Of a stretch of 64,000 bases of DNA, positions 1 through 52,506 are shown piece by piece. Origin of the DNA: Escherichia coli (GTDB taxonomy: Bacteria; Pseudomonadota; Gammaproteobacteria; Enterobacterales; Enterobacteriaceae); the NCBI RefSeq assembly GCF_024502345.1, contig NZ_JALDNN010000001.1. The stretch is one strand, 5' to 3'. The position numbers and the translations under genes were made by a program. The notes below the pieces were generated by a model. It was given only the letters and a program-made list of their open reading frames with translations. It did not search any database and was not told the DNA's origin. Each line of letters opens with the position of its first letter. Positions within the stretch are counted from its first letter, which is position 1.

Positions 1-624
1 CGTCTGCATCGCATCCAGACCACCACACATTAATACTGTCGGGAACGGGCCATCGCCTTTCGGCATATGCAAAAAGCCGGTGATGGGCGCACCGCCGGGT
101 ACGGTAAACTCCATCTGCCGCATCGTGCCCGGCAGACGCTGGGCGGCCTCTTCATAGGCGCGGTTTGATAAAGCCTGCGCTTGCTCGGCCAGGTCATCTC
201 CTTTCAGATGAGGATAGGCGGCAATGTTGTACAACGTAGCCGCATGCAGCCAGTGTCGACCACTGAGTTGCGGATCTTCTTCCGCACAGGCTTTTTGTTG
301 CCACACCATCGCCTGGGTGGCCCACTCATAAATCCAGTTGCCACCACGGTAGCCAATCACGGTATCGTATAAATCATCATCGGTACGTTCAGCATCGCTC
401 ATCACAATACGTGCCTGGACGTCGAGGATTTCACGTGGGTCAATGCCGCGCCAGATCCACATCAGACGGTTAATCATGCGATACCAGTGAGGGATGGTTT
501 TACCATCAAGGGCCGACTGCACAGGCGGTTGTGCGCCGTGATTAAAGCGGCGGACTAGCGTCGAGGTTTCAGGATGTTTAAAGCGGGGTTTGAACAGGGT
601 TTCGCTCAGGTTTGCCTGTGTCAT
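1..624 (-). CDS. frsA: FrsA esterase (fermentation/respiration switch protein), 5' portion; gene runs off the window start
   Basis: Reverse strand from ATG (cat at 622-624) reads MTQANLSE...; rc of bases 1-60 encodes [20 protein letters not shown]; absent from ORF track because no stop lies inside the window. Confidence 0.85.
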
Positions 625-715
625 GGATGCAGCCTCCAGAATACTTACTGGAAACTATTGTAACCCGCCTGAAGTTAAAAAGAACAACGCCCGGCAGTGC
701 CAGGCGTTGAAAAGA

Positions 716-1174
716 TTAGCGACCGGAGATTGGCGGGACGAATACGACGCCCATATCCCACGGCTGTTCGATCCAGGTATCTTGCGGGATATCAACAACA
801 TAATCATCAACCAGCGGACGACCAGCCGGTTTTGCGAAGATAGTCACAAAATGTGCTTTTGGATACATTTCACGAATCGCAACCGCAGTACCACCGGTAT
901 CCACCAGGTCATCAATAACGATGAAGCCTTCGCCATCGCCTTCTGCGCGTTTTAGCACTTTAAGCTCGCGCTGGTTGTCGTGATCGTAGCTGGAAATACA
1001 AACGGTATCGACATGACGAATACCCAGTTCACGCGCCAGTAACGCACCCGGTACCAGACCGCCACGGCTTACGGCAATAATGCCTTTCCATTGTTCAGAA
1101 GGCATCAGTCGGCTTGCGAGTTTACGTGCATGGATCTGCAACATGTCCCAGGTGACGATGTATTTTTCGCTCAT
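716..1174 (-). CDS. gpt: Xanthine-guanine phosphoribosyltransferase
   Basis: 152-aa [22 protein letters not shown]... with PRTase motif [11 protein letters not shown]. Confidence 0.95.
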
Positions 1175-1434
1175 GTGAAGTGTCCCAGCCTGTTTATCTA
1201 CGGCTTAAAAAGTGTTCGAGGGGAAAATAGGTTGCGCGAGATTATAGAGATCTGGCGCACTAAAAACCAGTATTTCACATGAGTCCGCGTCTTTTTACGC
1301 ACTGCCTCTCCCTGACGCGGGATAAAGTGGTATTCTCAAACATATCTCGCAAGCCTGTCTTGTGTTGACAACATTTTCTGCTAACCCTGTGACCTGCAAT
1401 ACTGTTTTGCGGGTGATCGACAAGGAGACTTAAC

Positions 1435-2892
1435 GTGTCTGAACTGTCTCAATTATCTCCACAGCCGCTGTGGGATATTTTTGCCAAAATCTGTTCTATT
1501 CCTCACCCGTCCTATCATGAAGAGCAACTCGCTGAATACATTGTTGGTTGGGCAAAAGAGAAAGGTTTCCATGTCGAACGCGATCAGGTAGGTAATATCC
1601 TGATTCGTAAACCTGCTACCGCAGGTATGGAAAATCGTAAACCGGTCGTCTTACAGGCCCACCTCGATATGGTGCCGCAGAAAAATAACGACACCGTGCA
1701 TGACTTCACGAAAGATCCTATCCAGCCTTATATTGATGGCGAATGGGTTAAAGCGCGCGGCACCACGCTGGGTGCAGATAACGGCATTGGTATGGCGTCT
1801 GCGCTGGCGGTTCTGGCTGACGAAAACGTGGTTCACGGCCCGCTGGAAGTGCTGCTGACCATGACCGAAGAAGCCGGTATGGACGGTGCGTTCGGCTTAC
1901 AGAGCAACTGGTTGCAGGCTGATATTCTGATTAACACCGACTCCGAAGAAGAAGGTGAAATCTACATGGGTTGTGCGGGGGGTATCGACTTCACCTCCAA
2001 CCTGCATTTAGATCGTGAAGCGGTTCCAGCTGGTTTTGAAACCTTCAAGTTAACCTTAAAAGGTCTGAAAGGGGGTCACTCCGGCGGGGAAATCCACGTT
2101 GGCCTGGGTAATGCCAACAAACTGCTGGTGCGCTTCCTGGCGGGTCATGCAGAAGAACTGGATCTGCGCCTTATCGATTTCAACGGCGGCACACTGCGTA
2201 ACGCCATCCCGCGTGAAGCCTTTGCGACCATTGCTGTCGCAGCTGATAAAGTCGACGTCCTGAAATCTCTGGTGAATACCTATCAGGAGATCCTGAAAAA
2301 CGAGCTGGCAGAGAAAGAGAAAAATCTGGCCTTGTTGCTGGACTCTGTAGCGAACGATAAAGCTGCCCTGATTGCGAAATCTCGCGATACCTTTATTCGT
2401 CTGCTGAACGCCACCCCGAACGGTGTGATCCGCAACTCAGACGTGGCAAAAGGTGTGGTCGAAACCTCCCTGAACGTCGGTGTGGTGACCATGACTGATA
2501 ATAACGTAGAAATTCACTGTCTGATCCGTTCACTGATCGACAGCGGTAAAGACTACGTGGTGAGCATGCTGGATTCGCTGGGTAAACTGGCTGGCGCGAA
2601 AACCGAAGCGAAAGGCGCATATCCTGGCTGGCAGCCGGACGCTAATTCTCCGGTGATGCATCTGGTACGTGAAACCTATCAGCGTCTGTTCAACAAAACG
2701 CCGAACATCCAGATTATCCACGCGGGTCTGGAATGTGGTCTGTTCAAAAAACCGTATCCGGAAATGGACATGGTTTCTATCGGGCCAACTATCACCGGTC
2801 CACACTCTCCGGATGAGCAAGTTCACATCGAAAGCGTAGGTCATTACTGGACACTGCTGACTGAACTGCTGAAAGAAATTCCGGCGAAGTAA
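1435..2892 (+). CDS. pepD: Cytosol non-specific dipeptidase (aminoacyl-histidine dipeptidase) PepD
   Basis: 485-aa ORF, GTG start, MSELSQLSPQPLWDIFAKICSIPHPSYHEE...; M20-family metallopeptidase. Confidence 0.95.
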   Translation: MSELSQLSPQPLWDIFAKICSIPHPSYHEEQLAEYIVGWAKEKGFHVERDQVGNILIRKPATAGMENRKPVVLQAHLDMVPQKNNDTVHDFTKDPIQPYIDGEWVKARGTTLGADNGIGMASALAVLADENVVHGPLEVLLTMTEEAGMDGAFGLQSNWLQADILINTDSEEEGEIYMGCAGGIDFTSNLHLDREAVPAGFETFKLTLKGLKGGHSGGEIHVGLGNANKLLVRFLAGHAEELDLRLIDFNGGTLRNAIPREAFATIAVAADKVDVLKSLVNTYQEILKNELAEKEKNLALLLDSVANDKAALIAKSRDTFIRLLNATPNGVIRNSDVAKGVVETSLNVGVVTMTDNNVEIHCLIRSLIDSGKDYVVSMLDSLGKLAGAKTEAKGAYPGWQPDANSPVMHLVRETYQRLFNKTPNIQIIHAGLECGLFKKPYPEMDMVSIGPTITGPHSPDEQVHIESVGHYWTLLTELLKEIPAK

Positions 2893-2905
2893 TTATTTGA
2901 TTTGC

Positions 2906-2940
2906 TGCCGGATGGCGTTTAATCGCCTTCCGGCAGTTTC
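2906..2940 (+). terminator. Putative rho-independent terminator after pepD
   Basis: GC hairpin tgccggatggcg/tcgccttccggca followed by a T-rich run just after the pepD stop. Confidence 0.4.
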
Positions 2941-2948
2941 ATCCTTCA

Positions 2949-3506
2949 TTATCCTTCGATAAAAGCCATCCCTGTAAATGTCCGTCTCGGGTTGCCACGT
3001 TCAATCTGGTGATGGAACATTCGCCGCTGCGATTTCAGCACCGCGCTATTTTCCTGTTGCTGCTGCTCCAGCTTCCAGGCAATCAGCAATCGTGCCAGCC
3101 GCTTGTTAGCATGCTGACTACGCTCTGACTGAACCTTCACGCTAATACCGGATGCCAAATGCGTGGCGCGTACCGCCGAGTCGGTTTTATTGACATGTTG
3201 ACCGCCCGGCCCCGACGAACGCAACGTCTCATAACGGATTGCATCCGATTGTTCCTGCTCATCAGCGGTAAAACGCCCAATGCCCAGAAACCAGTTTTTG
3301 CGCCCATGATGAGGCCGATACGGACTCGGACAAATCCACTGAATAGTGCCGCACCAGCTTTCGCTTAATGCCCATGCGTTATCGCCATCCAGAGAAACCA
3401 GCGCCGAACGCAGCGTGTCAGAGTAGCGGCCTGTTTCTGTTTCCAGCACCGTTACCGCGACGTCTTGTCGGGTAAAAACGACCAACAGAGAAGAACGCTG
3501 CGCCAA
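2949..3506 (-). pseudogene. prfH: Peptide chain release factor homologue PrfH, N-terminally truncated
   Basis: 185-aa ORF with GGQ motif ([16 protein letters not shown]); first residues do not match a PrfH N-terminus and the ORF overlaps the ykfJ fragment. Confidence 0.75.
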
Positions 3507-3684
3507 TCGGGTAGCCGCGTCCGGGGTGTAAATCTGGCATCCCCACTACGCGCTGCATGTTGGGTAAATTTGCCGTGGTGTGTAATTGTTGGATCGCTAA
3601 ACTCTCGATCCACAGGTCATCAGATGCGATGGTAAATACCGCATCGGATAAGGGAAGAATATATTTGCCCATGTACCATTCCAT
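3418..3684 (-). pseudogene. ykfJ: RtcB-like RNA ligase N-terminal fragment
   Basis: 88-aa ORF MGKYILPLSDAVFTIASDDLW...[17 protein letters not shown] (RtcB N-terminal motif), then runs into the prfH frame. Confidence 0.75.
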
Positions 3685-3989
3685 TTATACTCGTCATACT
3701 TCAAGTTGCATTTACTGCGACTGCGTTCGTTCACCCCAGTCACTTACTTATGTAAGCTCCTGGCGATTCACTCGCTTGTCGCCTTCCTGCAACTCGAATT
3801 ATTTAGAGTATATAAATATAAAAATCAGGAAATGGCAGACGAATCCAGGGCAAGAAAAAAAGAATTAATCCTGGAAAGGTCTGCAAAGAGTCATTGATAA
3901 AGGATTTGTCATGATTTACCTCCTTGCAGTTTGTGGAATAAGAAAACGCGCACATACCAAGCGGGCGTTATTTTCATTGCAAGCTGGAT

Positions 3990-4442
3990 TTAATGTTGCG
4001 GTTTATATCGCATATAAAAATTAGTAAACCACGCTCCCCGGCATTCAACGCGCTGCTGCTTAACTGTCTGAAAACCATAACGTTCAAAAAAGGGTTTTGC
4101 GGTTATGCTGGCATCTACCGTAAGTTCGGATTCAGACTTAATCAATGGTTTTAACAAGGCGCTGGCAACCCCGCGGCGGGTGTATTCAGGGTCAACAAAT
4201 AACATATCGATATAACGTTCAATGCGGGAAATAAAACCAACCGGTTGTGCATTAATGACGGCAACCCGCACTTGTGATTTCGCGAGTTTCTCCTTCCAGC
4301 GAGATTCGTCAATCTGCGCCCAGGCGGCAATTTGTTGTGGAGAATAGTGCTGACTGGAGGTCATCGTAACCGCTCTAATGAAAATAGCGCATAGTTGCTG
4401 AAAATCGCCAGGCTGATAGTTTCTTATTTGTATGTTATTCAT
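3990..4442 (-). CDS. yafP: GNAT-family acetyltransferase YafP
   Basis: 150-aa [24 protein letters not shown]...; start overlaps the dinB stop (ATGA). Confidence 0.9.
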
Positions 4443-5494
4443 AATCCCAGCACCAGTTGTCTTTCCATTTGCGGATCCAGCAACGTCACATGCAGCCCCA
4501 CCAGTCGCACACCTCGCCCGCCGCGGCGTTCATCCCAGGTTTTACGCGCGGTGGCGATTAAGTCAGCTTTATTCAGCCTCGGCCAGACGTGCTCCTGGGT
4601 GGTTTGCTGAAAATCGTCGAACTTTAATTTCACCCCCTGGCGAGCAATCAGTAAATCAGGTTTTACCTTTGCCAGACGGCGTTCAAGTTCCGGATACAGC
4701 CGCTCGATAATCGCTTCACATTCAGACCAGTGATGAATATCTTCCGCCATCGTGCGTTCCACGCCGACGGATTTTCGCAACCGTTCGCTGTTAACATCGC
4801 GTTCGTCAATCCCCTGACTACGCTCCCACAAAATGCGGCCAAATTTGCCAAAGCGTTTAAGCAGCATCACCAGATCACACTTTTGTACATCACCGCAGGT
4901 CCGCAGCCCCATCGCTTCCAGTTTTGCCGCCGAGACTTTGCCGACGCCGGGGATTTTTGCCAGTGGTAAGGTTTGTAAAAATGCCGGAACTTCTGCCGGC
5001 GTAATCACAAACTGGCCGTTGGGTTTATTCATGTCGGAGGCGATTTTGGCGAGAAACTTTACTGGTGCCACGCCCGCAGACGCCGTCAGTTGCAGCTCGC
5101 TGAAAATCGTCTGGCGGATTTCCTGGGCGATGAGGGTCGCAGAACCGTGGCAATGGACGCTATCGGTGACATCGAGATAAGCCTCATCCAGTGACAACGG
5201 TTCAATGCGCGAAGTGTAGCGCGAGAAGATTTCACGGATATGATTTGAGGCTTCTTTGTAGGCGTCAAAGCGCCCCGGAAGCAAGGTGAGATGTGGGCAT
5301 AATTTGAGCGCCATCCCAGTAGGCATAGCGCTACGTACGCCAAATTTACGCGCGGGATAATTGGCGGTGCTGATCACCCCCCGACGTTCGCGGCTGCCGC
5401 CAATAGCAATAGGGATATCGCGCAGGGCGGGATTGTCGCGCATCTCCACCGCTGCGAAAAAGCAGTCCATATCCACATGAATGATTTTACGCAT
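4439..5494 (-). CDS. dinB: DNA polymerase IV (Y-family translesion polymerase)
   Basis: 351-aa [36 protein letters not shown]... Confidence 0.95.
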
Positions 5495-5508
5495 TGCTCA
5501 CCTCTCAA

Positions 5509-5528
5509 CACTGGTAAAGTATACAGTG
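5509..5528. promoter_or_regulatory. LexA (SOS) box upstream of dinB
   Basis: CACTGGTAAAGTATACAGTG, i.e. CTGT-N8-ACAG on the reverse strand, 15 bp upstream of the dinB start. Confidence 0.8.
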
Positions 5529-5564
5529 ATTTCAGGGTTTGAGAAATGCGTAAAGATTCAGCAT

Positions 5565-6455
5565 TTAGCGCGTTCGTTGTGAAAGCACCTGCTGCTTATC
5601 CAGCTTTTGCACCAGCGGCTGCACCACTTTATCCCCATGCTGACCAAAGTATTGATACAGCGTATCGGACGCGCTTTTAGTCAGCACCATAATCTCAATG
5701 CGCCGATTGCCCGCGCTTTGCGGATTTTTGGCATCCAGCAGCATCTGGTCCGCCATTGCGCTTACCTGCATCACTTTATCTTCCGGCATTCCGGCCTCTT
5801 CCAGCACCCGACGAGCCGAAAGCGCGCGGTCACCCGAAAGGTTCCAGTTGTTGTAGATATTGTTTTTGTAGGCCATCGCATCGGTATGCCCGGTAATAAT
5901 AATTTTATTATCGAGCGAGTCGAACACTGGCGCTAACTCCACCAACAGCGTTTTAAAGAACGGCATAATCTGCGCGCTGCCGCGTTCGAACATATTGCGA
6001 TTCTGGTCGTCTTTAATCAGCACGCGTAATCCCTGCGGGACAATCTCCATCTCCAGATTCGCTTCCATATGCGCATCACGGGCAATGGTGTTGATACTGG
6101 TTGCCAGCTCACCAAGCTCGGTGGCGGATTTCTTCTTCAGCAGCGCCGTTTTCTCGTTGACGTCGCGCGCTTTTTTCTCCGTCTCTTCCGGCACCGCCAC
6201 GGTGGCAGGTTTTGGCGGATGAGACGGGCTGATTTTATTTAACGGCGACAGCCCACCACCGTTAAAAATCGACTGCCCGTGCAGCGCGGCGATAATGCTT
6301 TCACGCTCGGATTTACTGACGCTGTTGACAATCAACTTTATCGTCGTCACCAAAGGGGCCGAGCGTATTTCCGAGGTTTCTGCCCGCTTCACCCTGGACG
6401 CGATGCCCGGCAAGCAGATGGCGATTGACGCCGATCTTAACGCCGGGTTGATCAA
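5565..6455 (-). pseudogene. lafU: Lateral-flagellar MotB-like protein LafU, fragment
   Basis: OmpA/MotB C-terminal domain (ITGHTD...NWNLSGDRALSARRV...RRIEIMV); the 5' end of the ORF overlaps the divergent lfhA fragment. Confidence 0.7.
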
Positions 6456-8034
6456 CCAGGCGCAGGCGCAAACCCGGCGTAAAGATGTCGCCAGCGAGGC
6501 CGATTTCTACGGCGCGATGGACGGGGCATCGAAGTTTGTGCGCGGGGATGCCATCGCCGGGATGATGATTCTGGCGATCAACCTGATCGGCGGCGTCTGT
6601 ATCGGGATCTTCAAATACAACCTGAGCGCCGATGCCGCCTTCCAGCAATATGTGCTGATGACCATCGGCGACGGCCTGGTGGCGCAGATCCCTTCCCTGC
6701 TGCTCTCCACGGCGGCGGCGATAATCGTCACCCACGTCAGCGACAACGGCGATATCGCCCATGACGTGCGCCACCAGTTGCTGGCAAGCCCGTCGGTGCT
6801 CTACACCGCTACCGGGATTATGTTTGTGCTGGCGGTGGTGCCGGGAATGCCGCATCTGCCGTTTTTGCTGTTCAGCGCCCTGCTTGGCTTTACCGGCTGG
6901 CGAATGAGCAAACGCCCGCAGGCAGCGCAGGCGGAAGAGAAAAGCCTCGAAACGCTGACCCGCACCATCACTGAAACCAGCGAGCAACAGGTCAGTTGGG
7001 AAACCATTCCGCTGATCGAGCCCATCAGCTTAAGCCTCGGCTACAAACTGGTGGCGCTGGTGGACAAAGCGCAGGGCAACCCGCTCACCCAGCGGATTCG
7101 CGGCGTGCGGCAGGTGATTTCTGACGGCAACGGCGTGCTGCTGCCGGAGATCCGCATTCGGGAAAACTTCCGCCTTAAGCCCAGCCAGTACGCTATTTTC
7201 ATCAACGGCATTAAGGCTGATGAAGCGGATATTCCGACGGATAAACTGATGGCCCTGCCCTCCAGCGAAACCTACGGCGAGATTGACGGCGTGCTGGGGA
7301 ACGACCCGGCGTACGGGATGCCGGTGACCTGGATCCAGCCTGCGCAGAAAGCGAAGGCGCTGAATATGGGGTATCAGGTGATCGACAGCGCCAGCGTGAT
7401 TGCCACCCATGTGAATAAGATTGTACGCAGCTATATTCCTGATTTGTTTAACTATGACGACATCACACAGTTGCATAACCGTTTGTCGTCGATGGCACCG
7501 CGCCTGGCAGAAGACTTAAGCGCGGCGCTGAATTACAGCCAGTTGCTGAAAGTGTACCGCACACTACTGACCGAAGGCGTTTCCCTGCGCGATATCGTCA
7601 CCATCGCCACCGTGCTGGTCGCCAGTAGCGCGGTGACTAAAGATCATATTCTGCTGGCGGCCGATGTACGCCTGGCGCTGCGGCGCAGCATTACCCATCC
7701 GTTCGTTCGCAAGCAGGAGCTGACGGTGTATACGCTGAATAATGAGCTGGAAAATCTGCTGACCAACGTGGTGAATCAGGCGCAACAGGGCGGTAAAGTG
7801 ATGCTCGACAGCGTGCCAGTGGACCCGAATATGCTCAACCAGTTCCAGAGCACGATGCCACGGGTGAAAGAGCAGATGAAAGCGGCGGGGAAAGATCCGG
7901 TGCTGCTGGTGCCGCCGCAGCTGCGTCCTTTGCTGGCGCGCTACGCAAGGTTGTTTGCGCCGGGGCTGCATGTGCTGTCGTATAACGAAGTGCCGGACGA
8001 GCTGGAGTTGAAGATTATGGGGGCCTTGATGTAG
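6295..8034 (+). pseudogene. lfhA: FlhA-like flagellar export protein, N-terminally truncated (Flag-2 remnant)
   Basis: 579-aa ORF begins mid-protein in an FlhA-conserved region (FTLDAMPGKQMAIDADL); about 110 N-terminal residues are missing. Confidence 0.75.
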
Positions 8035-19490: not shown

Positions 19491-21246
19491 ACTACATGTC
19501 TACATTTTCCCGGTCACCAACCCCTCAATCTTATGAACTTAACCTCGGCTCACCGTTTTCGATTCCATCCAATAAATGACCCGGTTGGATGTGGGCTGAT
19601 CGCCAACAACTTTGCCATCTGCAGAGATTAGCTTCAGCTCTTTATTAGCCTCATCACCGAAGTAAATCATGCGGTAGCGAAAATAACCGCCCCAGGGTTC
19701 ACGTCCACCCAGCGAACTTTGCATAAACCAGGCGCGGGAGTCGTGAACCTGGTCATCATAGAGGGCCAGTAATTCAGCGCATGGCTGAGTACGCGTTCCC
19801 GTTCCCAGTGAATCAATAAAAAATTGTGGATAGAGTCCGTCTCCCATAGCCTTAATTTGCTGATATTCTTTTGCTTCATCATCGCCATTAATCAGATACA
19901 CCGGATATTTAGGAATGACATCCACAAGAATCTGAATGGCTTTCTCCATGACGCTGCCGTTAATATCGCGCGTCCATCCTTTATAATCGCTCTGAAATTC
20001 TCGGGCTGCCTCTCGCAACTGATACTGAGCATTGGTTGGGTCAAGGATAGGAATGCCCTGATTACTTTCATCAAGTGTGCCATTCCCTTTCTGCTTGTTC
20101 GCCCGCTCTTTTTCAATATTTTCCATTTGTTCTTTACGCGCTTTAGCCTCTTTATCAAGTCCATCTTTATCCAGCTGTGGCGCCTTAATATAAAAAGGTT
20201 GCACAAGAAGGCTGTTATTCGCATAGCGACCGATACGCCAGGCGGTGATCCAGCCGATCTGATCGCTAATTGCGCTTTCAAGAACCTGGGCAAGTTGATA
20301 GGAGTGATAACCTTCCCTCGTATCAATCATTTCTTCTGTACCCTGCAAGGTGGTGTTCAGCAGCGTTTGTCGCCAGATGTTGAAGCGTTTTGTTAATGAA
20401 TTAGCAATCGTAAATTCCTTTACGCTAGAAGGACTCATAATTCGCAGAGGCGACACACCTTTTATTAATGGAGTAACAAATTTAGAATAAACAGCAAGTG
20501 GTGCTCCTGAATCAAATGCAGCAAGATACATATCATGCAGTGCTATCTGAGAAAGAATTTCGCCTGAGTCACCACAGGACTTCCCCTGATCGCGAACGGG
20601 ATAGCCACCACCGACATCAGAGTGCATCCCCGGATAGATAATTTCCGTCTGGACGACGGATTGAATCCAGCGGAAAGCACAGCCGCTGCTCATGCGCGGC
20701 AACGAAGTGGCGGCAGCATTTAATCAGGCCGGGAAACTGCCTCTCATCAGGGAGTTGCTGAGTACTATCGGCCCATCCCATATGACCGGCAGCGCCCGGT
20801 AAAACATGCGCCGCCCCCACAGAAGCTACGGTATCCAGCAGCCCCAAAAACTCAATACTGACAGCTAACCCGGCCAGCATCACCTGTTGCTCCTGCGGGC
20901 AAGCTAACTGAGTCAACCAGTTAACAAAAGTTCGTGCTTCCGCTGCGCCACGGGAAAATCCGTAGATAAACAGCTTTACGTTTAGCAGGCGCGGACTGGC
21001 TTGCTCTAACAGTCCCTGTAATTTTTCCAGGTAGGGGTTAATCACATTGCGACGATTCACTTCACCAGTCATAGGCCAGGGAGCGCGCATAAGAGGAATG
21101 TGCTCTTTTGCCACATTATCATCCAGTCGCTTATGGGAAGGGTCAATGGAATAGTTCAGGGCATCCACGAGGCGTAATAATGCCCAATTAATTCGATCTT
21201 CACCACCAGTAGCGAACTCCAGCCCGCTGTTGCTGTAATCCATTTC

Positions 21247-24138: not shown

Positions 24139-25302
24139 TCAAACTCCCGGTTGTAGTTCCACAAGCATCTCGCGAGTCTTGCCGGCCCGCTCCACTAACA
24201 AGACCACAACATCTCCAACGTTCTTGTCGTCTAGCCGGGCCTGTAATGTGGTGACGTCGTCGACGGCGATACCGTCGATGCTGATAACGCGATCGCCGGG
24301 CACGATGCCGCCTGCGGTGACCTCGACGCCGACGAGCCCGGCCCTGTGCGCCGCCGAGCCCGGCGTCACGCGCAATACGAATACGCCCTTACTGCCGGTC
24401 AGCGCCTGCAGACGCGCGTTGAGCTGCTCATCCACCTCGATGCCCAGCGCCGGACGGATGTACTTGCCGGTCTTTATGAGTTGCGGCACCACGCGCATGA
24501 CGGTATCGACCGGCACCGCAAAGCCGATGCCGGCCGAGGCGCCAGACGGACTGTAGATGGCGGTATTGATGCCGATCAGCCGCCCAGCCGAATCGAGCAG
24601 CGGGCCACCGGAATTGCCGGGGTTGATAGCGGCGTCGGTCTGGATCAGGTGGTCAATGGCCGGGCCACTGGCGTCGCCGGAAAGGGTGCGGTCAAGCGCC
24701 GAGACGATGCCGGTGGTGAGCGTCCAGTCGAGCCCGAAGGGATTGCCAATGGCAAAGACCTTTTGCCCCACCTTGAGATCGGCACTGGTGCCCACCGGCA
24801 CCGCCGGCGGGCGCTTGAAGCCGACGCCAATCTTGAGTACCGCGATGTCGTGCGCAGGACTAGCGCCAACGAGCGCAGCCTGATAATCGCGACCGTCGGC
24901 CAGTTTGACCGTGGCAGACGATGCCCCCTGGATCACGTGGAAGTTGGTCACCACGTGGCCGGCATCGTCCCAGATGAAGCCGGAGCCGGTGCCGCGCGGC
25001 ACGGAAAAGACATTGCGCGACCAGACGTGACGCACTAGTTGTGCCGTGGTGATGTAAACCACCGACCCGCGCGATTTCTCGAACAGCTCGATGGTGGTTT
25101 TTTCGTCGGCGGCCAGGTCGCCGCGCGGCGTCACCGTGCGCTCCTGCGTTTCGTGGGGACTGAACCAGGCTTCGATGGCGGGCAGGAACTGCCACAGCAG
25201 CATGAGTGCGGCGATGCAGCCAGTGATGACGAGCCAGCGCCGGATGAAGCGGTCCGGCGCCGGGCGGCTGTAGGGGTCGGGGTAGGTCACGTCATTCTCC
25301 AT
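24139..25302 (-). CDS. degP: DegP/HtrA-family periplasmic serine protease
   Basis: 387-aa ORF with trypsin-like catalytic motif GNSGGPLLD and a C-terminal PDZ-like region. Confidence 0.85.
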   Translation of the reverse strand: MENDVTYPDPYSRPAPDRFIRRWLVITGCIAALMLLWQFLPAIEAWFSPHETQERTVTPRGDLAADEKTTIELFEKSRGSVVYITTAQLVRHVWSRNVFSVPRGTGSGFIWDDAGHVVTNFHVIQGASSATVKLADGRDYQAALVGASPAHDIAVLKIGVGFKRPPAVPVGTSADLKVGQKVFAIGNPFGLDWTLTTGIVSALDRTLSGDASGPAIDHLIQTDAAINPGNSGGPLLDSAGRLIGINTAIYSPSGASAGIGFAVPVDTVMRVVPQLIKTGKYIRPALGIEVDEQLNARLQALTGSKGVFVLRVTPGSAAHRAGLVGVEVTAGGIVPGDRVISIDGIAVDDVTTLQARLDDKNVGDVVVLLVERAGKTREMLVELQPGV

Positions 25303-27779: not shown

Positions 27780-29498
27780 TCATGGTCTATCCCCGCCTGA
27801 CTGACTGAGTGCCTGCCGTAATTCCTCGATCCGGTGGTCGACTTGGTCGGCGTTGATGCCCAACATCAACAGTACCTGCTCGGCCAGTCCCAGTCCCGCA
27901 GCCAGGTACAACGGGTACAGTCTGACATTGGGCAGATTACGCAAAAGCTGGGCATCCGTTACGCGCTCAGTGGCCACCACCACGGACAAGCTCAGGCGGC
28001 GGTCGAGAACCGCCTGAGCGATACGCAGGGCCGTCTGCGGACGGGCAAACGTCAGCACCACCAGGCGGGCATGGGCCAATCCGGCGGCGGCCAGGGTGTC
28101 GAGCCGACTGGCATCGCCATACGACACCGGCGCCCCCATAGCACGCCCCGCTTCGACCCGTTGGCGGTCCGATTCCAGCAGCAAATGCGGTATGCCTGCC
28201 AGGCGCAGCGTTCGGCTCAGCAGCAGCCCGACGTCATCCGCCCCACAGATGATCACATGGTCGCGCAACGACCGCGCCCGCTCGGCGACTTCGCCTTCTT
28301 CGGCCTGCGGTGGCTGACCGAGTGCGCCCGAGCGGCTGAAAGCCCGCGCCCATCGGTCATGGTGTCGGATCAGGAGCGGTGCCAACCCCATGCTCAACAC
28401 CAGCGCCACCAGCATCGGTTGCACCATGGTGGCGGCGATCAGGTGCTGCTGCATGACCATGCCCAGGAGCAGCAGCGCAAACTCGCCGCCATGACCCAGC
28501 ACGATGCCTGCGCGCCAGGCGTCGAGCGCCGACAGGCGGGTTGCGCGCAGCGCCAGAAAGTTCAGCCCCATCTTGAGAGGCACCAAGGCCAACAGCCAAC
28601 CCAGTACCGCCAGCGGTGCGGCCACGATCTGCGCGGTGTCCAGCTGCAGGCCAATGGTCACGAAGAACAGGCCCGACAGCACATCACGAAAGGGCTTGAG
28701 GTGGCTTTCCATGTGGTGCCGGAAGTCGCTCTCGCCCAGGACCATGCCGGCGAGAAAGGCCCCCAGGGCGGCGGATACGCCGACGGCGTGTGCAGCAGCG
28801 GCTGCCGCCACGACCACGCACAAGGAGACCAGCACGAAGGATTCTTCGTGGCCCTGCCGCGCCACCCAGCCCAGCAGGCCATGCAACAGACGACGCGAGG
28901 CAACCGCCGCTGCCGCGAACAACACCAGCACGCCCAACACTTCGAGCAGCACGCTCTCGATCTTCGGCGAGTCGCCGCGCGCCCAGATCGCCAGCAGGGC
29001 CAGCAGGGGCACGCTGGCCAGGTCCTGAAAGACCAGCACGGCGATGGCACTGCGGCCGTGGCGGGTGGTGAGCTCGCCTTGGTCGGCCAGCTGTCGGCTG
29101 ACCAGCGCCGTGGACGACATGGCCGCTGCGGCGCCGAGCAGTGCAGCGCTCTGAGCTGGCTGACCCAACCCGATCAGCACCAGGGTCAGTGGCGCGGCCA
29201 CGACGACCATCTGCAAGCTGCCGGACGCCAGTACGGTCTTGCGAGTGAGCCAGAAGTGCCCCAGCGAGAATTCCAGTCCGACCATGAACAGCAGCAGGGC
29301 CACACCCAGTTCGGATATGAAAGTCAACGCCTCTCCCGGCGCGATCACACCGCTGACCGAGGGGCCCAGCAAGGCGCCGACGGCGAGGTAACCCAGCAAG
29401 GCGGGTACTCTGAACGCCGCCGTCGCCACCACCGAGAGGCTGCACGCCGCCAGCAGGATCAGGGTAGTGCCGAGCAAATCCTGCGGATTCCACGCCAT
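27780..29498 (-). CDS. kefB: KefB-like cation/proton antiporter with C-terminal TrkA-N domain; first five codons derive from the IS21-family end
   Basis: 572-aa ORF with multiple TM helices and a Rossmann-like VIICGADDVG; start ATGGCGTGGAATCCGCAG lies inside the IS terminal repeat plus target duplication. Confidence 0.8.
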   Translation of the reverse strand: MAWNPQDLLGTTLILLAACSLSVVATAAFRVPALLGYLAVGALLGPSVSGVIAPGEALTFISELGVALLLFMVGLEFSLGHFWLTRKTVLASGSLQMVVVAAPLTLVLIGLGQPAQSAALLGAAAAMSSTALVSRQLADQGELTTRHGRSAIAVLVFQDLASVPLLALLAIWARGDSPKIESVLLEVLGVLVLFAAAAVASRRLLHGLLGWVARQGHEESFVLVSLCVVVAAAAAAHAVGVSAALGAFLAGMVLGESDFRHHMESHLKPFRDVLSGLFFVTIGLQLDTAQIVAAPLAVLGWLLALVPLKMGLNFLALRATRLSALDAWRAGIVLGHGGEFALLLLGMVMQQHLIAATMVQPMLVALVLSMGLAPLLIRHHDRWARAFSRSGALGQPPQAEEGEVAERARSLRDHVIICGADDVGLLLSRTLRLAGIPHLLLESDRQRVEAGRAMGAPVSYGDASRLDTLAAAGLAHARLVVLTFARPQTALRIAQAVLDRRLSLSVVVATERVTDAQLLRNLPNVRLYPLYLAAGLGLAEQVLLMLGINADQVDHRIEELRQALSQSGGDRP

Positions 29499-36896: not shown

Positions 36897-38231
36897 TCAA
36901 GAACAGGCCATGAGCAAGAATAGTCCATGAAGCAATAGCGCATGTCCCATCTCGTGATAGGCCACGGTTTCCCGCTCCTTCGGATTGAGCACACGGTTCT
37001 TCCTTTCCAGGCCGGCCACGATGCGCTCGATGGCGGCGGTGAAGTCTTGCAGCTCCACAGCCTGCGCCTTGCGCCGCGTCGCGTTCAGCGCTGCTTCGTT
37101 CACGAGATTGGCCAGATCAGCGCCGGAAAAGCCGGTGGTCAACGCCGCCACCTGTTCCAGATCTACACCGTGGGCCAGGGTGATCTTCTTGACATGGACC
37201 TTCAGGATATCCAGGCGACCTTTCTTGTCGGGACGGTCCACCAGCACCTGACGGTCGAAGCGACCGGCACGAAGCAAGGCCTGATCGAGGATTTCGGGGC
37301 GGTTGGTGGCGGCGAGGATGATCAGCCCGACCGAGCTGTCGAAGCCATCCATTTCGGTGAGCAACTGGTTCAGCGTCTGCTCACGCTCGTCGTGTCCGCC
37401 GGTCGGTCCTCCGACACCGCGTGCGCGGCCCAAAGCATCCAGCTCATCAATGAAGATGATCGCCGGCGCCTGCCCGCGCGCCTGCTCGAACAGGTCGCGC
37501 ACGCGCGCCGCACCCACGCCGACGAACATCTCGACGAACTCCGAGCCTGAGATGGAAAAGAACGGTACCCCGGCCTCGCCCGCCACGGCCTTGGCCAGCA
37601 GGGTCTTGCCCGTGCCCGGCGGGCCAACCAGCAACACACCTTTCGGGATGCGCGCGCCGAGGCGGCCGTAATCCTGCGGGTTCTTCAGGAAGTCGACGAT
37701 TTCGACCAGCTCGGCCTTGGCCTCATCGACACCCGCGACATCGGCAAAGGTGACGCCGGTGTTCTTCTCCATGAACACCTTGGCGCGGCTCTTGCCGATG
37801 CTCAGGAAGCCGCCCATGCCCTGCTTCTCGGCGAAGCGGCGGAACAGGAAGAACCAGACGCCGAAGAAGGCCACCGCCGGCAGAATCCAGGAGAGCACAT
37901 CACGTAGCCAGGTGCTTTCCACCACCCGCGCGTAGGGCACCTCGTACTTGGACAGCCGCTCGGCCAGGTCGGGTTCGACGCGAGTGGCCACGATGGTGGT
38001 CTTGCCCCGGCTGTCCGGCGATTTCAGGCGCCCGGTGACCGTGCGGTCCGACACCAGCACTTCGGCGACGCGCCCCTCGGCCAGCGCCTTCTCGAATTCG
38101 CTGTAGGGCACGGGCTCGACGGTCTTGGCCGCCTGCCAGTAGTTCTGCAGCGTCAGCAGCAACAGGCCGGCGACGATCCAGTAGCCAATGTTCCATTGAT
38201 CTTTCTTTTCCATGGGCAATGTTCCTCGCAA
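36897..38231 (-). CDS. ftsH: FtsH-like AAA+ protease, C-terminally short (ends about 20 residues after HEXXH)
   Basis: 444-aa ORF with TM N-terminus, Walker A GPPGTGKT, Walker B IIFIDELD, then AYHEMGHAL and an early stop. Confidence 0.75.
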
Positions 38232-38240
38232 GTCGTGCCG

Positions 38241-39701
38241 CTAGAGAATGGGGGTGAACAGACGGGCCACCCCGTCGCGCAAGCGCATGGCCAGCGGGTG
38301 GGCGCGCAACGCCTTCGCCGATATCTCGCCCGACACATCACGAGCGGCATCAAAAAGGGATGACAGCCGCGTAGACAACGCGGTGTCGTACACCTCCACA
38401 TTGAACTCGAAGTTGAGGCGCAAACTGCGCGCATCCCAATTGGCCGAACCCAGGCAGCACCACGCTCCGTCTACCAGCATCAGCTTGCTGTGGTCGAACG
38501 GGCCAGGCCGTTCGAAGATGCGCACACCGTGCTCCAGCACCTGCCAGTAGTGGGCGCGCGCGGCCCATTGCACCGTGGGATGGTCGCCGTTTGCGGGCGT
38601 CAGCACGTCGATACGCACGCCGCGCAACGCGGCCGTGCTCAGCGCCGCGATCATCGGCTGATCGGGGACGAAGTAAGGTGTCCAGATGCGCACCGAATGC
38701 TTCGCCGCGCTCAAAGCGCCCATGAAGGTCCAGCGCATCCGGTCCAGGGCCTCGTCGGGACCGGCCTCGATGCCGCGCGCCCAACTGGTTCCCGGCTCAT
38801 CAGCCGTTACGGGCGGTTCGCCCCAGAAACCCTCGTTGAGCCGCTCGCCCGTGGTATCGCACCAATCATCGGTGAAGCTCCGCATCAGATGCTCCACCAC
38901 CGGCCCGCGCAGACGAAAGTGCAAATCGTGACAGGCCTGGTCCGGCGCATCGGGCCGCCAGTACGGGCTGAAGATGTTCAATCCGCCGGTGAAACCCGTC
39001 TCGCCATCGATCACCAGCAGCTTGCGGTGATTCCGCAGATGCGCGGCATGCAGGCGCGCGGGAATCAATGTCGGGTTGAACGTCGCCGCCGGAACGCCGG
39101 CGCGCTGCAAGGCGCGGTAGGCGCTGCGGGGCGTCCAGCGGGCATACACGTCGTCGATCAGCACCCGCACTTGCACGCCGCGCTCATGAGCCCGGCGCAG
39201 CGCATCGACGAACTGCGCCCCGATGCCTTGGCTGTCGAAGATGTACGAGGTCAAGGCGACGCTGTACCGCGCCGATTCGATGGCGGCGAGCATGGCCGGG
39301 TAGGCCTGCTCGCCATCGACAAGCGGCTCGATGCGGTTGCCGCCGGTCAGCGACTGGCCGGTGGCGCGTCCCACCAGGTGGGCCAGACCGGCAAGTGGCG
39401 GCGATACAGCCTCGGGTATCGTGGGCGAGAGATCCTGCCGAACAGCAGGATCTGCCCCCGGGAAGAGCCGCCGCGCCCGCCGCTGGTAACGGTTGATGCC
39501 GAACAGCCCATACAGCAGCGAACCGCCCAGCGGCAGCAAGGCGATCAGCAGTACCCACAGCGTGGCCGATCGAGGGTCACGCTTGTAGATGACCGCATGC
39601 CCCGCTGTGGGGATAGCGACCGCCAGCGACACGAGGGTGGCTGCCCATGTCAGCCCATTGGGGTCGGACACGACAGCCTCCCATCGCTCAAGATTCGCCA
39701 T
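38241..39701 (-). CDS. cls: Cardiolipin synthase / phospholipase D family
   Basis: Start [11 protein letters not shown]... (cat at 39699-39701); two HKD motifs (HRKLLVIDGE; HSKLMLVDGAWCCLGSANWD). Confidence 0.8.
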   Translation of the reverse strand: MANLERWEAVVSDPNGLTWAATLVSLAVAIPTAGHAVIYKRDPRSATLWVLLIALLPLGGSLLYGLFGINRYQRRARRLFPGADPAVRQDLSPTIPEAVSPPLAGLAHLVGRATGQSLTGGNRIEPLVDGEQAYPAMLAAIESARYSVALTSYIFDSQGIGAQFVDALRRAHERGVQVRVLIDDVYARWTPRSAYRALQRAGVPAATFNPTLIPARLHAAHLRNHRKLLVIDGETGFTGGLNIFSPYWRPDAPDQACHDLHFRLRGPVVEHLMRSFTDDWCDTTGERLNEGFWGEPPVTADEPGTSWARGIEAGPDEALDRMRWTFMGALSAAKHSVRIWTPYFVPDQPMIAALSTAALRGVRIDVLTPANGDHPTVQWAARAHYWQVLEHGVRIFERPGPFDHSKLMLVDGAWCCLGSANWDARSLRLNFEFNVEVYDTALSTRLSSLFDAARDVSGEISAKALRAHPLAMRLRDGVARLFTPIL

Positions 39702-42543
39702 CCGCTGACTTCTTCTTGCGCGCAGGCTTGCTCGCGTCGCCAGGCGGTGCCTCGGCCACGTCCGCGGCATCGGGCTTTTCAGGCTCAGCCGACTTCGCGG
39801 GTGGCTCCTGGCGCTCGAAGACCACCCGTTCGGCCTTGTCGTCCCAGCGGGCGTTGGCGTGATCACCCTTGCCGATACCGCCACCCAGCATCTCGCGCGC
39901 CAGCGCGGTTTCCAGCTCGCTGCGGATCAGCCGCTTGAGCTCACGCGCGCCGAACTCGGGCTTGTAGCCTTCCTCCGCGAAGTGGTCGATCAAGGTCTGA
40001 TCGAAGGTCAGCGTCACGCCCTGGCTGGCGGCGTTGCGGGCCACACGATCAAGCTGCAGGCCGACGATATGGCGGATTTCCTCCTTGCCCAGCGCATGGA
40101 AGACGATGATCTCGTCGATGCGGTTGATGAACTCGGGGCGGAAGTGTCCGCGCAGCACGTCCATCACCTCGGACTTGGTCTTCTCGTATTCCTCGCCGGC
40201 GGCGCCACCGGCCTTCAGCCGACGCTGGATGATGTCCGAGCCCAGGTTCGAGGTGGCGATGATGATGGTATTGGTGAAATCCACCACCCGGCCCTTGCCG
40301 TCGGTGAGCCGCCCGTCGTCGAACACCTGCAGCAGGATGTTGTAGACGTCGGGGTGCGCTTTTTCGATCTCATCGAGCAGCAACACGCTGTAGGGCTTGC
40401 GACGCACCTTCTCGGTGAGCTGGCCGCCCTCGTCATAGCCCACATAACCCGGAGGCGCGCCCACCAGGCGTGCCACGGCATGGCGTTCCCCGTACTCGGA
40501 CATGTCGATGCGCAGCAGCGCACCTTCATCGCCATAGATGGACTCGGCCAGCGCCTTGGCGAGCTCGGTCTTGCCCACGCCGGTCGGCCCAAGGAACAGG
40601 AAAGTCGCCACCGGCTTGTCGCCTTCGCGCAGGCCCGCGCGCGACAACCGCACGGCATCGGCCACCGCGCGCACCGCTTCGTCCTGGCCCACCAGGCGCT
40701 CATGCAGCCGCTGCTCCAGATGCAGCAGCTTCTCGCGTTCTTCCACCGTCAGCTCGTTGACCGGAATGCCGGTCAGGCGCGAGACGATCTGCGCGACATG
40801 CTCGGCCTTGACTTCGGCGCTGCCCGAGGCGCGCTCGCGTTCCCATTCCTCGACGAGCTGCTTGAGTTCAGTCTCCTTGGCCTCGATGCGCTTGCCCAGC
40901 TCGGCGGCCTTGTCGTACTGCTTGCGCGAGGCCATGTAGTCCTGCTCACGCCGCAACTGGTGCAGTTCGGACTCCAGCTCCTGCACCGCCACCGGGCGAG
41001 CCGTGGCCGACAGCTTCACGCGTGCGGCCGCCTGGTCAAGCAGGTCGATGGCCTTGTCAGGCAAAAAGCGCGCGGTGATGTAGCGGTCCGACAACTCGGC
41101 GGCGGCGATGATCGCATCCTCGGTGATGCTGACCTTGTGGTGCGCCTCGAAGGTGTCGCGCAGGCCGCGCAGGATCATCATGGTCTGCGCTACCGTCGGC
41201 TCGGGCACCATCACCGGCTGGAAACGACGCTCCAGCGCGGCGTCCTTCTCGATGTACTTCTGATACTCGTTGAGCGTGGTGGCGCCGATCAGGTTCAGTT
41301 CGCCGCGCGCCATCATCGGCTTGAACACGTTGGCCACGTCCAGCCCGCCTTCGCCGCCACCCTGGCCTGCACCGACGATGGTGTGCACTTCATCGATGAA
41401 GAGAATCATCTCGCCCTGGTGCTCGGTCACTTCCTTGAGCACCTTCTGCACGCGCTCCTCGAACTCGCCGCGATACTTGGCGCCTGCCACCATGGCGTTG
41501 ATGTTGAGCTCGACCAGACGCTTGTCGCGCAGCGTCTCGGGCACTTCACCGGCGACCATGCGCTGCGCCAGCCCTTCGACAATGGCGGTCTTGCCGACGC
41601 CGGGCTCACCGATCAACACCGGGTTGTTTTTCTTGCGCCGGGCCAGCACCTCGATGGTGGTCTCGATCTCCTGCGCACGGCCGATGACTGGATCGAGTTT
41701 GCCCTCGCGCGCCATCTTGGTGAGGTCGCGCGAGTATTTATCCAGCTCGGGCGTGTTGGTCGGCGTCTCGGCGCGGCCATCCTCGGCCCCTTTGCCGACC
41801 ACCTTGCTTACCTGCTGGCGCAGCGCTTGCGGCGTGAGGCCGTAACGGCGCAGCAGGTTGGCCGCCAAACCTTCGCCTTCCTCAGCGAGCCCGATCAGGA
41901 AATGCTCCGGCCCGACATAAGAGTGGCCGAGTTCGTTGGAGGCCACGAAAGCGCGGCTGAGCGCGTCCTTGACCCGGGGCGACACGCCGACTTCGCCCTC
42001 GAACGGCTTCTCGCCGCGCTTGGCTTCGGATTCGATCTGTCGCTTGAGGTCATCGACCTTGATCTTGAACTGTCCCAGGATGGTCTTCACCACGTCGCTG
42101 TCGGATAGCGCCAGCAGCAGGTGTTCGGTATCGACTTCGGCGCGCCCGAACTCTGCAGCGTGTCGGGCGGCCTCCTGCAATAGGGCCTCGGACTGTTCGC
42201 TGATACGGCTGGCGAGCCCACTGCCGCGACGGCGCGCAGTGCCCGTACCGGCCGGGGCGGGTTCGCCGAACGAGGCATCGACCACCTCGTCGGTATCGGC
42301 CGCCATGGACGGCGAATCGTCACCGATGCGGAAGAAGTCGCTGCCGAGGAAGTCTTCGAACAAGCCGCTGCGCGAGCCAAACAAGGCTTCCAGCGGCGAG
42401 ACGGTGCGCTTTTGCTGGCGCGCCAGTTGGCGATAGTGATCGTCACACAACAGCATGGTGCTGTGGCGACCATTGAGATTGGCTTCCACCCGCACCGTGG
42501 CGGGCTGGCCGCAGACCTGGCATTGTTTTCTGGCCATGCTCAT
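39688..42543 (-). CDS. clpK: ClpK/ClpG-type AAA+ disaggregase (ClpB-like with N-terminal zinc-binding domain)
   Basis: Start [17 protein letters not shown]... (cat at 42541-42543) after GGAG; two AAA+ modules (GEPGVGKT and GPTGVGKT). Confidence 0.9.
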
Positions 42544-42634
42544 GCTCCTTGAGAGGACTGATTTGACGAGGCGCCGAAGGTCACGGCGCCTCGCCATTCA
42601 CTTGGTTTTTCTGTAGAGAACAAGCCGATCGGCG

Positions 42635-44659: not shown

Positions 44660-46497
<1,838 letters not shown>

Positions 46498-46505
<8 letters not shown>

Positions 46506-48000
46506 TCCATCTTCCTATCAATCGAATGAACGCAGTGGTCAGTGGTGCCACCCTGCTTTTTTCCAATCCACAACGCTTTTCCAGCTCCCAGCGCCTAGAC
46601 GTTATGCCTGTCTGTACATCCTTCAGCATCGCTGCAGTCAGGCGACGGATCTGATACTCGCCGACGGACTCGGCATAGCGATCCAGGAAGGTGCAGCAAA
46701 GAGGCAATTGATCGAGACGGTGCTCGACTGATGCCCGATGGGGTAGCTGCTGCAGGAACCAGTTGCGACTCCTGCGCGGAAGGCCCAGGTCTTCTTCGCT
46801 ACCTCTACCAATCCGGATCAGCAGGCGCACCAACCTTATGTCACGCGCTCGCCAGTCGATGTGGCTGTTGTTGCCCTGTCGGCGCTGCCTGACCTGGTTC
46901 GCAACCATCAGCCAGTGTCGGTCATGACGATAGAGCCAGGCGTAACATGCCCCTGCTCCGTCTTGCCTGGCTGCCTTGGCTCCACCGTGATTAGCCAGTG
47001 CTTGCAGCCAAATGGCTCGGTACTGCTGCTTTTGCTCAAACTCAGCAGGGAGCAGCTGCACTGACCGCTCGGAGGCAAGGTCGACCTGGCGAGTCTTCGC
47101 CTCGCTGATCAGCTCGCCAGCATGCTGGCCAGGGCGCAGGCTGGTCCAGACGATCAGATGCTGCAGCGCACTGAATCCCTTGCGATGCTTCCTGAACATC
47201 GCCAACAGCCAAGGTGGAGGCTCTCCGGATGTCAGCAGACCGTTCGCAGCAAGCCAATCCCTTTGATGGGATGCCAGGATCTTCTCCCAGATGACTTCAG
47301 CCCTGACCTGCCGGCCTCGCCTGGCGCCGCACTCTGTAGCCAGGTACCGGTACAGGTTGGTCCAGCGTCCGTAGCCAGGCGATTGCACCTCTTCGAGCGC
47401 CAGCAGCTGCATAGCAGCCTTGGCGAGCCTGATAGCCTCTTCGCCCACGGGACTCACGCGAAGATCACGGGGCAGAAACAGTGGAGAGGCTGTATGAAAC
47501 TCGTGCCGCTGCGCTCGACGGAACGGGATAGGTGAGTTCAGGAGCTGACAGCCATGCTCGGGACAGGCATCTATCCCTTGAATCTGCCAGCTGCGCCGCC
47601 AGTAGGGTTCACCGTAGCGCGCAGCCATATCTTCAAAGCAGATCGGGCAGTAACGCAGCCAATCGGGCCACTTGACCAAGGCCGTCGAGGCCCCAGACAG
47701 ACCAATCGTCGGCCGGTCGGGAGCAAGCATGGCCTGAAAAAGATCGGTACGGCGCTCCGGCGGAATGAAAGGGGCATAGAGCGGGAACAGCGTGTGATTC
47801 AGGATCATGCCTTCCGCATCCAAGCCCGTGTTGTTCGCCAACGCAGTCAGGTGTGTGGGCAGATCGGTGATCGCGGCAACCTTGCTGTCACCGAAAAGCA
47901 TGTGCAGCAAGGTCTTGTGGCTGCCTATCCCCAGATGTACCCGGCACCGGGCAATACCGCTGTAAAGCAGTTCGTCCGGGTAGAGCCTGGGGAAGTACAT
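46498..48000 (-). CDS. tnsD: Tn7 TnsD/TniQ-like target-selection protein
   Basis: 500-aa ORF MYFPRLYPDELLYSGIARC...; zinc-finger-like RYCPICF...CPEHGC; FRKHRKGFSALQHLIVW and YAWLYRHDRHWL blocks. Confidence 0.8.
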
Positions 48001-48001
48001 G

Positions 48002-51692: not shown

Positions 51693-52506
51693 TGCTCAGC
51701 TCCTGATGCATTTGATGAGAGTTGGCAACCAGGTCTTTCGGCTTCAGCTCCCGGTAAGGAGTGTCAAGATCGAAAAGGAAACAGTGCCGGGCCAGCAACT
51801 GGCGTAGCCAATAGAGCGCCTGACCGGCCTCCAGCTGGCCGGAGGTATCCAGTCCTTGGGCAATAGCGGTCAGCTTCCGGTCTGGGTGACGCTGAAACTC
51901 GAGCAGAAACAGCTGCTGGTAATGGGCGAGATCGTCCTGAGCGATGTCGCCTTCAGCATGGGCAGGATAGAGCCATTGGATATTGGCAAATGCCACCTTG
52001 GATACCTCGCGCTCCGTAACGATGACCCAGGGAATACCTTTTTCCTGCCAGTAGCGCCTTTCAAGCTCAAGCCTCTCGATAACTTCAGGCTTCTGCAGGT
52101 CGGTACTGTACTTGGCCTGAATCGCGATGCTCGGGCGCTGAGGATCTTCGAAATCCACCAGAAAGTCGCTGGTCAGTACCTGCGGGGTACCCTTGTAACA
52201 ACCGTGGGGCAGGCCAAGCTCCTCGGCGATGCGCACCGTATCTTCGACCCGCATCGGAAACTGTTCACGGATATCGGTGACATGGGGAGACCGATCCAAG
52301 GTCAGGAAGATGGCCAGTTCAAGATCGGATAGAAGATGGTGTAAACGCCGGGTCTTGCTGCCAGGCAGGCGGTGGGAGCGACCCAGCGAGGACACGTCCC
52401 TTGTGTAGATGAACGGCTTGTAGTCTGATCCCTGGCCTTGACCACGCCCGTCCTTGAGCCTTCTATCGATCTGGGCCTGGGTCAGCCCCTTGAATGTTCC
52501 AGACAT
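51679..52506 (-). CDS. tnsA: Tn7 TnsA-like endonuclease
   Basis: 275-aa ORF MSGTFKGLTQAQIDRRLKDGRGQGQGSDYKPF...HHLLSDLELAIFL...TSDFLVDF...AIQAKYS; sits just inside the right transposon end. Confidence 0.9.
   Translation of the reverse strand: MSGTFKGLTQAQIDRRLKDGRGQGQGSDYKPFIYTRDVSSLGRSHRLPGSKTRRLHHLLSDLELAIFLTLDRSPHVTDIREQFPMRVEDTVRIAEELGLPHGCYKGTPQVLTSDFLVDFEDPQRPSIAIQAKYSTDLQKPEVIERLELERRYWQEKGIPWVIVTEREVSKVAFANIQWLYPAHAEGDIAQDDLAHYQQLFLLEFQRHPDRKLTAIAQGLDTSGQLEAGQALYWLRQLLARHCFLFDLDTPYRELKPKDLVANSHQMHQELSSVAR

Follow-up and report, generated by a model that had tools for sequence, protein, structure and literature searches.

The window, i.e., the whole 64-kb stretch of Escherichia coli DNA analyzed here, encodes a short dinB operon in which a yafP orthologue lies directly downstream of dinB on the same strand and both reading frames are intact. 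The features of the operon are listed in Table 1. DinB scores 546 bits (cut-off, 256) with the NCBIfam model for DNA polymerase IV, NF002677; at the amino-acid level, its identity with K-12 DinB is 99.7%. Likewise, YafP scores 324 bits (cut-off, 146) with NF007338, and its identity with K-12 YafP is 96.7%. A terminator scan found no consensus terminator downstream of yafP.

Table 1. Features of the dinB operon in the 64-kb window.
Feature	Coordinates	Strand	Basis or remark
LexA (SOS) box of the dinB promoter, CACTGTATACTTTACCAGTG	5509..5528	minus	K-12-identical, CTG-N10-CAG form
Sigma-70-like promoter, TTCTCA / 16 nt / TATACT, overlapping the LexA box	5518..5545	minus	Consensus scan, 9/12 matches
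dinB, DNA polymerase IV, 351 aa	4439..5494	minus	ORF list; Pfam IMS, IMS_HHH, IMS_C
Junction, single ATTATGA copy	4439..4445	minus	Direct sequence reading and window-versus-K-12 blastn
yafP, GNAT-family N-acetyltransferase, 150 aa	3990..4442	minus	ORF list; Pfam Acetyltransf_10

An earlier note on this DNA described a 4-bp overlap between the dinB stop and the yafP start, and direct reading agrees. The plus-strand letters tcat at 4439-4442 correspond to ATGA on the coding (minus) strand, the last four bases of ATTATGA, and these 4 nt are common to the two genes, with dinB ending in TGA (4441..4439) and yafP beginning with ATG (4442..4440). The coding-strand junction reads ...CTGGGATT-ATGA-ATAAC..., and the distance from the end of dinB to the start of yafP is -4 nt in the window versus +755 nt in K-12. 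Upstream of the yafP ATG, GGGA is the sole purine-rich stretch; it lies two bases away, too close for normal Shine-Dalgarno spacing.

The overlap leaves no room for a yafN-yafO pair between dinB and yafP, as the note had also claimed, and no trace of the pair was found in the operon or in the rest of the window. A six-frame tblastn search with the K-12 proteins, which the note had proposed as a check on the operon and which we ran over all 64 kb, returned no YafN or YafO homologue and nothing better than E = 0.64; blastn of the 755-bp K-12 cassette against the window gave only chance matches of 12-22 nt. No frame of the 64-kb window showed similarity to the YafNO type II toxin-antitoxin system (YafO_toxin, PF13957, with a Phd/YefM-type antitoxin). 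The K-12 record has both genes between dinB and yafP, in line with the note's account of the K-12-type operon, and this four-gene order does not occur in the window. Relocation of yafNO to another part of the window was ruled out by the same tblastn and blastn searches.

Several features of the surrounding DNA were recorded alongside the operon. Window 2949-3684 holds truncated fragments of rtcB (ykfJ) and prfH, as in K-12; rtcB is intact in HS, O111:H8, TUM14697, FDAARGOS_144, and E. marmotae, the last of which also has an intact prfH, and all four combinations of the rtcB/prfH deletion with yafNO presence or absence occur. In window 5565-8034, remnants of lafU and lfhA abut or overlap and form the Flag-2 lateral-flagella deletion scar that K-12 also has, while E. 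marmotae (L036) retains motA, motB, and a sigma-factor gene upstream of dinB. Finally, a roughly 45-kb island that is not in K-12 occupies 16994-62232 and adjoins tRNA-Asp (aspV, 62156-62232). It features a clpK heat-resistance locus (ClpK, 39688-42597; FtsH-like, 36897-38231; DegP-like, 24139-25302; KefB-like, 27780-29498), a Tn7-like set at 44883-52506 that is likely tnsABCDE based on scanned TnsB-, TnsC-, and TnsE-like ORFs, and a fragment of a Tle1-like T6SS effector (19539-20702). Coverage of a 25-kb part of the island reaches at least 80% in just 19 of the 5,426 complete E. coli genomes, and plasmids account for some of the matches.

SOS promoter and expected expression of yafP

Compared with K-12, the 106 nt located 5' of dinB show three differences, each of them over 70 nt away from the dinB ATG. 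The last 70 nt before dinB, including CACTGTATACTTTACCAGTG, are the same in both, and neither the ribosome-binding site of dinB nor the -10 element that overlaps the LexA box has changed. The LexA box also lies at an equal distance from the dinB ATG in the window and K-12, and position 5528, at which the region treated in the earlier note ended, is its outer end. The note's statement that the SOS box upstream of dinB is intact therefore stands, as both the box and the promoter equal their K-12 sequences. The sigma-70-like promoter is a match at the level of consensus only, with the same sequence as in K-12. We take the LexA box of Table 1 to be the functional dinB SOS box of established knowledge. 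Published work supports the function of the dinB SOS box (PMC2814082).

Two promoters serve the genes after dinB in K-12, namely the SOS-induced PdinB and a proximal one, directly upstream of yafN, which YafN autoregulates (PMC2814082). Because the YafN-autoregulated promoter lies inside the segment missing here, PdinB is the sole known promoter upstream of yafP in the window. From the sequence and the published K-12 promoter mapping, we infer that yafP is under SOS control in the window and would be expressed only with dinB from the LexA-repressed PdinB. ATGA overlaps allow translation to restart upon termination. Given this general behavior and the lack of a well-spaced Shine-Dalgarno sequence, translation of yafP is most likely coupled to dinB termination at the overlap; ribosomes ending on dinB would restart at the ATGA, and YafP would be made. 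The short form would tie YafP synthesis directly to Pol IV synthesis. Such tight co-expression of dinB and yafP agrees with the published genetic interaction of their products, with YafP increasing the cytotoxicity of nitroaromatic compounds in cells that lack Pol IV (PMC3105422). Results obtained for K-12 yafNO, for example SOS-linked mRNA interferase activity and a second promoter feeding yafP, are inapplicable to the window's strain.

Frequency of the direct junction and the flanking repeat

Through a 200-nt probe that spans the window junction, we compared the dinB-yafP boundary across E. coli genomes, as the earlier note had suggested. The probe matched end to end in 2,569 of 5,426 complete genomes and as two split halves in the remaining ones. 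The K-12 yafNO cassette was present in 2,847 of the 5,426, including 16 genomes in which it is partial; dinB was present in 5,416, and the direct-junction and cassette classes together cover essentially all of them. All eight two-gene E. coli alleles that were sampled have the same ATGA junction, as do Escherichia sp. MOD1-EC7003 and E. marmotae. A two-gene form that is rare or specific to one lineage was ruled out by the count of complete genomes.

The two-gene operon is already known, since it was described by Gutierrez et al. 2011 (Nucleic Acids Res 39:4192; PMC3105422) as an operon with an ATGA overlap in 40-50% of E. coli strains; it is common and ordinary. The same authors proposed recombination between two ATGA sequences and at least three losses, and they used CFT073, a two-gene strain, for functional work (PMC3105422). 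The short dinB operon places the source of the window among the roughly 47% of E. coli-type genomes that have this form, which in itself matters little. The allele is not peculiar to the window's genome; E. coli and its sister lineages have long been polymorphic for it. We attach negligible probability to an assembly collapse or a sequencing error that dropped about 0.76 kb: we found no evidence in support of such an artefact, the identical junction is present in 2,569 complete genomes and several other Escherichia species, both frames are intact, and a unique 755-bp cassette with only a 7-bp flanking repeat gives an assembler nothing to collapse.

In 9/9 sampled four-gene alleles, the left edge of the cassette at the dinB stop reads GGG-ATTATGA-TGTATAC, and the right edge at the yafP start reads TAT-ATTATGA-ATAAC. 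The direct repeat that flanks the cassette is 7 bp (ATTATGA), not 4 bp, and has a period of 759 bp. By blastn, window 4439-4445 aligns to both of the K-12 repeat copies that flank yafNO (251947-251953 and 252706-252712). The window keeps one ATTATGA copy, consistent with a 759-bp deletion between the repeats. In a four-gene allele, a 755-bp segment with the yafN promoter/operator, yafN, and yafO lies between the dinB stop and the yafP start; a deletion from one ATTATGA to the other would take out the toxin-antitoxin module and one repeat copy exactly, probably by replication slippage or other short-homology recombination. The product would be dinB...GGATT-ATGA-ATAAC...yafP, with both frames intact and the yafP ATG overlapping the dinB TGA. 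Because a deletion between the repeats yields the same product each time, it would account for the identical junction in every two-gene allele. In Escherichia sp. E1V33, yafO has been cut to 8 codons via TTAT microhomology, which indicates that the region does undergo short-repeat deletions. Overall, we consider it probable that the SOS-regulated dinB operon of the window is a two-gene, CFT073-type allele, derived by deletion between the ATTATGA repeats and representing a common, long-standing polymorphism. A precise deletion of this kind would be scarless, and sequence cannot prove that the window's lineage ever had the cassette.

The flanking genes were compared by taking dinB and yafP from eight two-gene alleles, nine four-gene alleles, and the window, and building neighbor-joining trees, on which the two allele classes are intermixed. 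Between TUM14697 (two-gene) and FDAARGOS_144 (four-gene), there are differences at 0/1056 dinB sites and 5/453 yafP sites, and PE164 (two-gene) and O157:H7 (four-gene) differ at 1/453 yafP sites. HS and O111:H8 represent a separate two-gene haplotype. The window groups with 88-3493; their yafP genes are identical over 453 nt, and their dinB genes feature 14 differences, mostly in the 5' half. After 88-3493, the window is nearest to K-12-type four-gene alleles (17 dinB and 14 yafP differences) and not to the common two-gene haplotypes, the major ones of which (HS, O111:H8) are about 96.5% identical to it around the junction. The deletion is therefore carried on at least five flank backgrounds, a distribution compatible both with recurrent deletion, as argued in 2011 (PMC3105422), and with frequent recombination.

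Alternatively, the deletion may have arisen once or a few times elsewhere, and the window's lineage may have received a two-gene allele by homologous recombination. The mosaic nature of the locus, with yafP shared with 88-3493 and dinB divergent from it, speaks for such an import, as do the disagreement between the dinB and yafP flank trees and the matches to window 3700-5700, the best of which among complete E. coli genomes is 99.0% (O169:H41 strains, 88-3493) with none higher. We nevertheless regard import as rather doubtful. Some of the at least five two-gene flank haplotypes are near-identical to four-gene alleles up to the junction, and very short tracts would be needed each time; moreover, recurrence is expected where the repeats fix the outcome of the deletion. 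Import also bears on the history of the allele only, and the structure of the operon is the same as that produced by a deletion between the repeats within the lineage.

Direction of change and age of the cassette

Adjacent dinB and yafP genes without a cassette are found in Citrobacter amalonaticus (dinB TAA, 5 nt, ATG of yafP) and Kluyvera sichuanensis (dinB TAA, the 2-nt spacer CC, ATG of yafP), both with dinB-yafP-pepD-gpt-frsA synteny, and the E. marmotae representative has the two-gene, ATGA form. Taken alone, Citrobacter, Kluyvera, and E. marmotae suggest that the short form is primitive. The adjacency in Citrobacter and Kluyvera implies that a cassette-free arrangement existed at some depth, unless there were independent losses. 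Four genes are present in E. whittamii and in the divergent E. coli-labelled genome SCPM-O-B-8794. Published work lists four genes in E. fergusonii as well (PMC3105422) and is the sole source for that state here; the contig scan with YafP, which needs exact peptide words, recovered four Escherichia loci and missed E. fergusonii, E. albertii, and the main E. coli representative.

The four-gene operon was also recovered from an enterobacterial MAG of another genus (L043:1597-3858 and L044; metagenome scaffolds ERZ28584503 and ERZ4561121), in the order nqrM-dinB-yafN-yafO-yafP-pepD-gpt-frsA. As related Kluyvera and Citrobacter loci are without the cassette, the presence/absence polymorphism extends beyond Escherichia. 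The MAG cassette has the same left boundary as that of Escherichia, TGA/TGTATAC, and the 7-bp repeat is absent. Nucleotide identity is 77% for the cassette, 80% for dinB, and 85% for pepD, such that divergence of the cassette is in line with that of its flanks. Amino-acid identity is 83.5% for YafN, 84.8% for YafO, and 91.5% for DinB, and PepD of the MAG is 92% identical to that of E. coli, 94% to that of C. amalonaticus, and 85% to that of Kluyvera. More distant YafNO pairs of Klebsiella are in unrelated contexts. A cassette at the same site with proportionate divergence argues that it has occupied this site since before Escherichia arose, and we interpret the window's allele, with moderate confidence, as a derived deletion. 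The view that the two-gene form is simply ancestral and the K-12 type a recent insertion is weakened by the MAG cassette, with its shared boundary and proportionate divergence.

Within Escherichia, divergence of the cassette is low. Mean pairwise divergence among nine four-gene alleles is 1-2.5% in the cassette and 4-6% in the flanks, and the resulting valley is centered on yafO (loci L001, L003, L005, and L028-L033; K-12 251954-252708). Synonymous codon differences per 100 codons amount to 2.6 in yafO and 5.7 in yafN, compared with 11.3 in dinB and 6.9 in yafP. Between E. whittamii and K-12, nucleotide identity is 98.0% for yafN and 99.0% for yafO, versus 92.5-94.6% for the six flanking genes lafU, dinB, yafP, ykfJ, prfH, and pepD; more generally, yafO is 98-99% identical across Escherichia lineages whose flanking genes differ by 5-7%. 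Relative to the dinB synonymous rate, the synonymous deficit of yafO has a Poisson P of 3e-7 for E. whittamii and 4e-5 for FDAARGOS_144. Across the collection, identity to K-12 reached a minimum of about 98% for the cassette (2,831 genomes) and of 94.4% for the 3' 755 nt of dinB (all dinB-carrying genomes).

In the deeper comparison with L043/L044, the cassette does not evolve slowly. In this small sample, the valley within Escherichia therefore most likely stems from a younger common ancestor of the cassette, which would imply lateral exchange or a sweep across Escherichia lineages. The low divergence fits recent lateral spread better than vertical descent with repeated loss. Strong purifying selection is an unlikely cause of the low diversity, given that it is synonymous differences that are scarce and that the cassette keeps pace with dinB at greater depth. 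As a side comparison, yafP from window 3990-4442 and loci L001-L005 and L021-L033 evolves fast at the protein level, with 6.9 nonsynonymous versus 6.9 synonymous differences per 100 codons in four-gene alleles (dinB, 0.9 versus 11.3); these ratios indicate that the YafP acetyltransferase may be under relaxed or diversifying selection.

The same low divergence can also be read in favor of a primary absence, in which the dinB-yafP adjacency is original and the K-12 type is derived by insertion of yafNO with a 7-bp ATTATGA target duplication, followed by spread through homologous recombination. This origin would accommodate the conserved cassette-free synteny of C. amalonaticus and K. sichuanensis, the two-gene E. 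marmotae, the near-identity of yafN and yafO between E. whittamii and K-12 relative to their flanking genes, the synonymous deficit of yafO, and the collection-wide floor of cassette identity. In addition, a 7-bp duplication that spans exactly the dinB stop and yafP start resembles a target-site duplication, with a chance occurrence that we estimate at roughly 1 in 3,000. However, the MAG cassette with its shared boundary places the insertion before Escherichia, the ancestor of which probably had the cassette, and the lack of the 7-bp repeat in that MAG argues that ATTATGA is not a conserved insertion signature. Neither a transposase nor terminal inverted repeats are visible in the cassette, and the window flanks are closest to four-gene K-12-type and rare two-gene alleles rather than to the major two-gene haplotypes. 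We therefore consider a primary absence unlikely and retain deletion between the ATTATGA repeats as the preferred origin of the window's allele.

Deletion and spread may also be combined. We tentatively raise the possibility of two-way traffic, in which slippage between the ATTATGA repeats removes the cassette and recombinational import brings it back, even across Escherichia species. The yafO-centered valley speaks for such traffic, as does the cassette's divergence in another genus (77% identity against 80-85% for dinB and pepD). If so, the window would represent the "empty site" of a selfish addiction module that re-invades a fixed chromosomal position in an SOS operon. The 7-bp repeat, the occurrence of the cassette at this site outside Escherichia, and the yafO valley bear on the persistence of chromosomal toxin-antitoxin modules as polymorphisms.

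Comparison with named operon forms

The four-gene dinB-yafN-yafO-yafP operon of E. coli K-12 was reportedly described by McKenzie et al. 2003. It was also the subject of Christensen-Dalsgaard et al. 2010 (PMC2814082). The window and K-12 have the same dinB promoter and LexA box, are 98.4% identical in dinB and 96.9% identical in yafP at the nucleotide level, and are alike in their neighbors, with lafU upstream and the ykfJ and prfH fragments and pepD downstream. The window is collinear with K-12 from 257150 to 235163 except for the yafNO gap and the 45-kb island adjoining aspV. It differs from the K-12 operon in lacking the 755-bp segment that holds the YafN-autoregulated promoter, yafN, and yafO; yafP overlaps dinB in the window, whereas in K-12 it follows yafO after a 9-nt gap.

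Escherichia sp. E1V33 (L002) resembles the window in that a short-repeat deletion in the same operon has removed the toxin gene. Unlike in the window, only yafO has been lost, yafN and its promoter are kept, and dinB and yafP are 376 nt apart. This third operon form, dinB-yafN-yafP, features an orphan antitoxin gene (L002:3676-4001).

Finally, the window corresponds to the two-gene operon of CFT073 and about half of the ECOR strains, with which it shares the ATGA overlap, the absence of yafN and yafO, and the upstream dinB SOS promoter (PMC3105422). As in the CFT073-type operon, dinB comes first and yafP next, and the window junction, GGGATTATGAATAAC, is identical in every sampled two-gene E. 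coli allele. The flank haplotype of the window is uncommon; in structure, there is no difference between the window and the CFT073-type operon.
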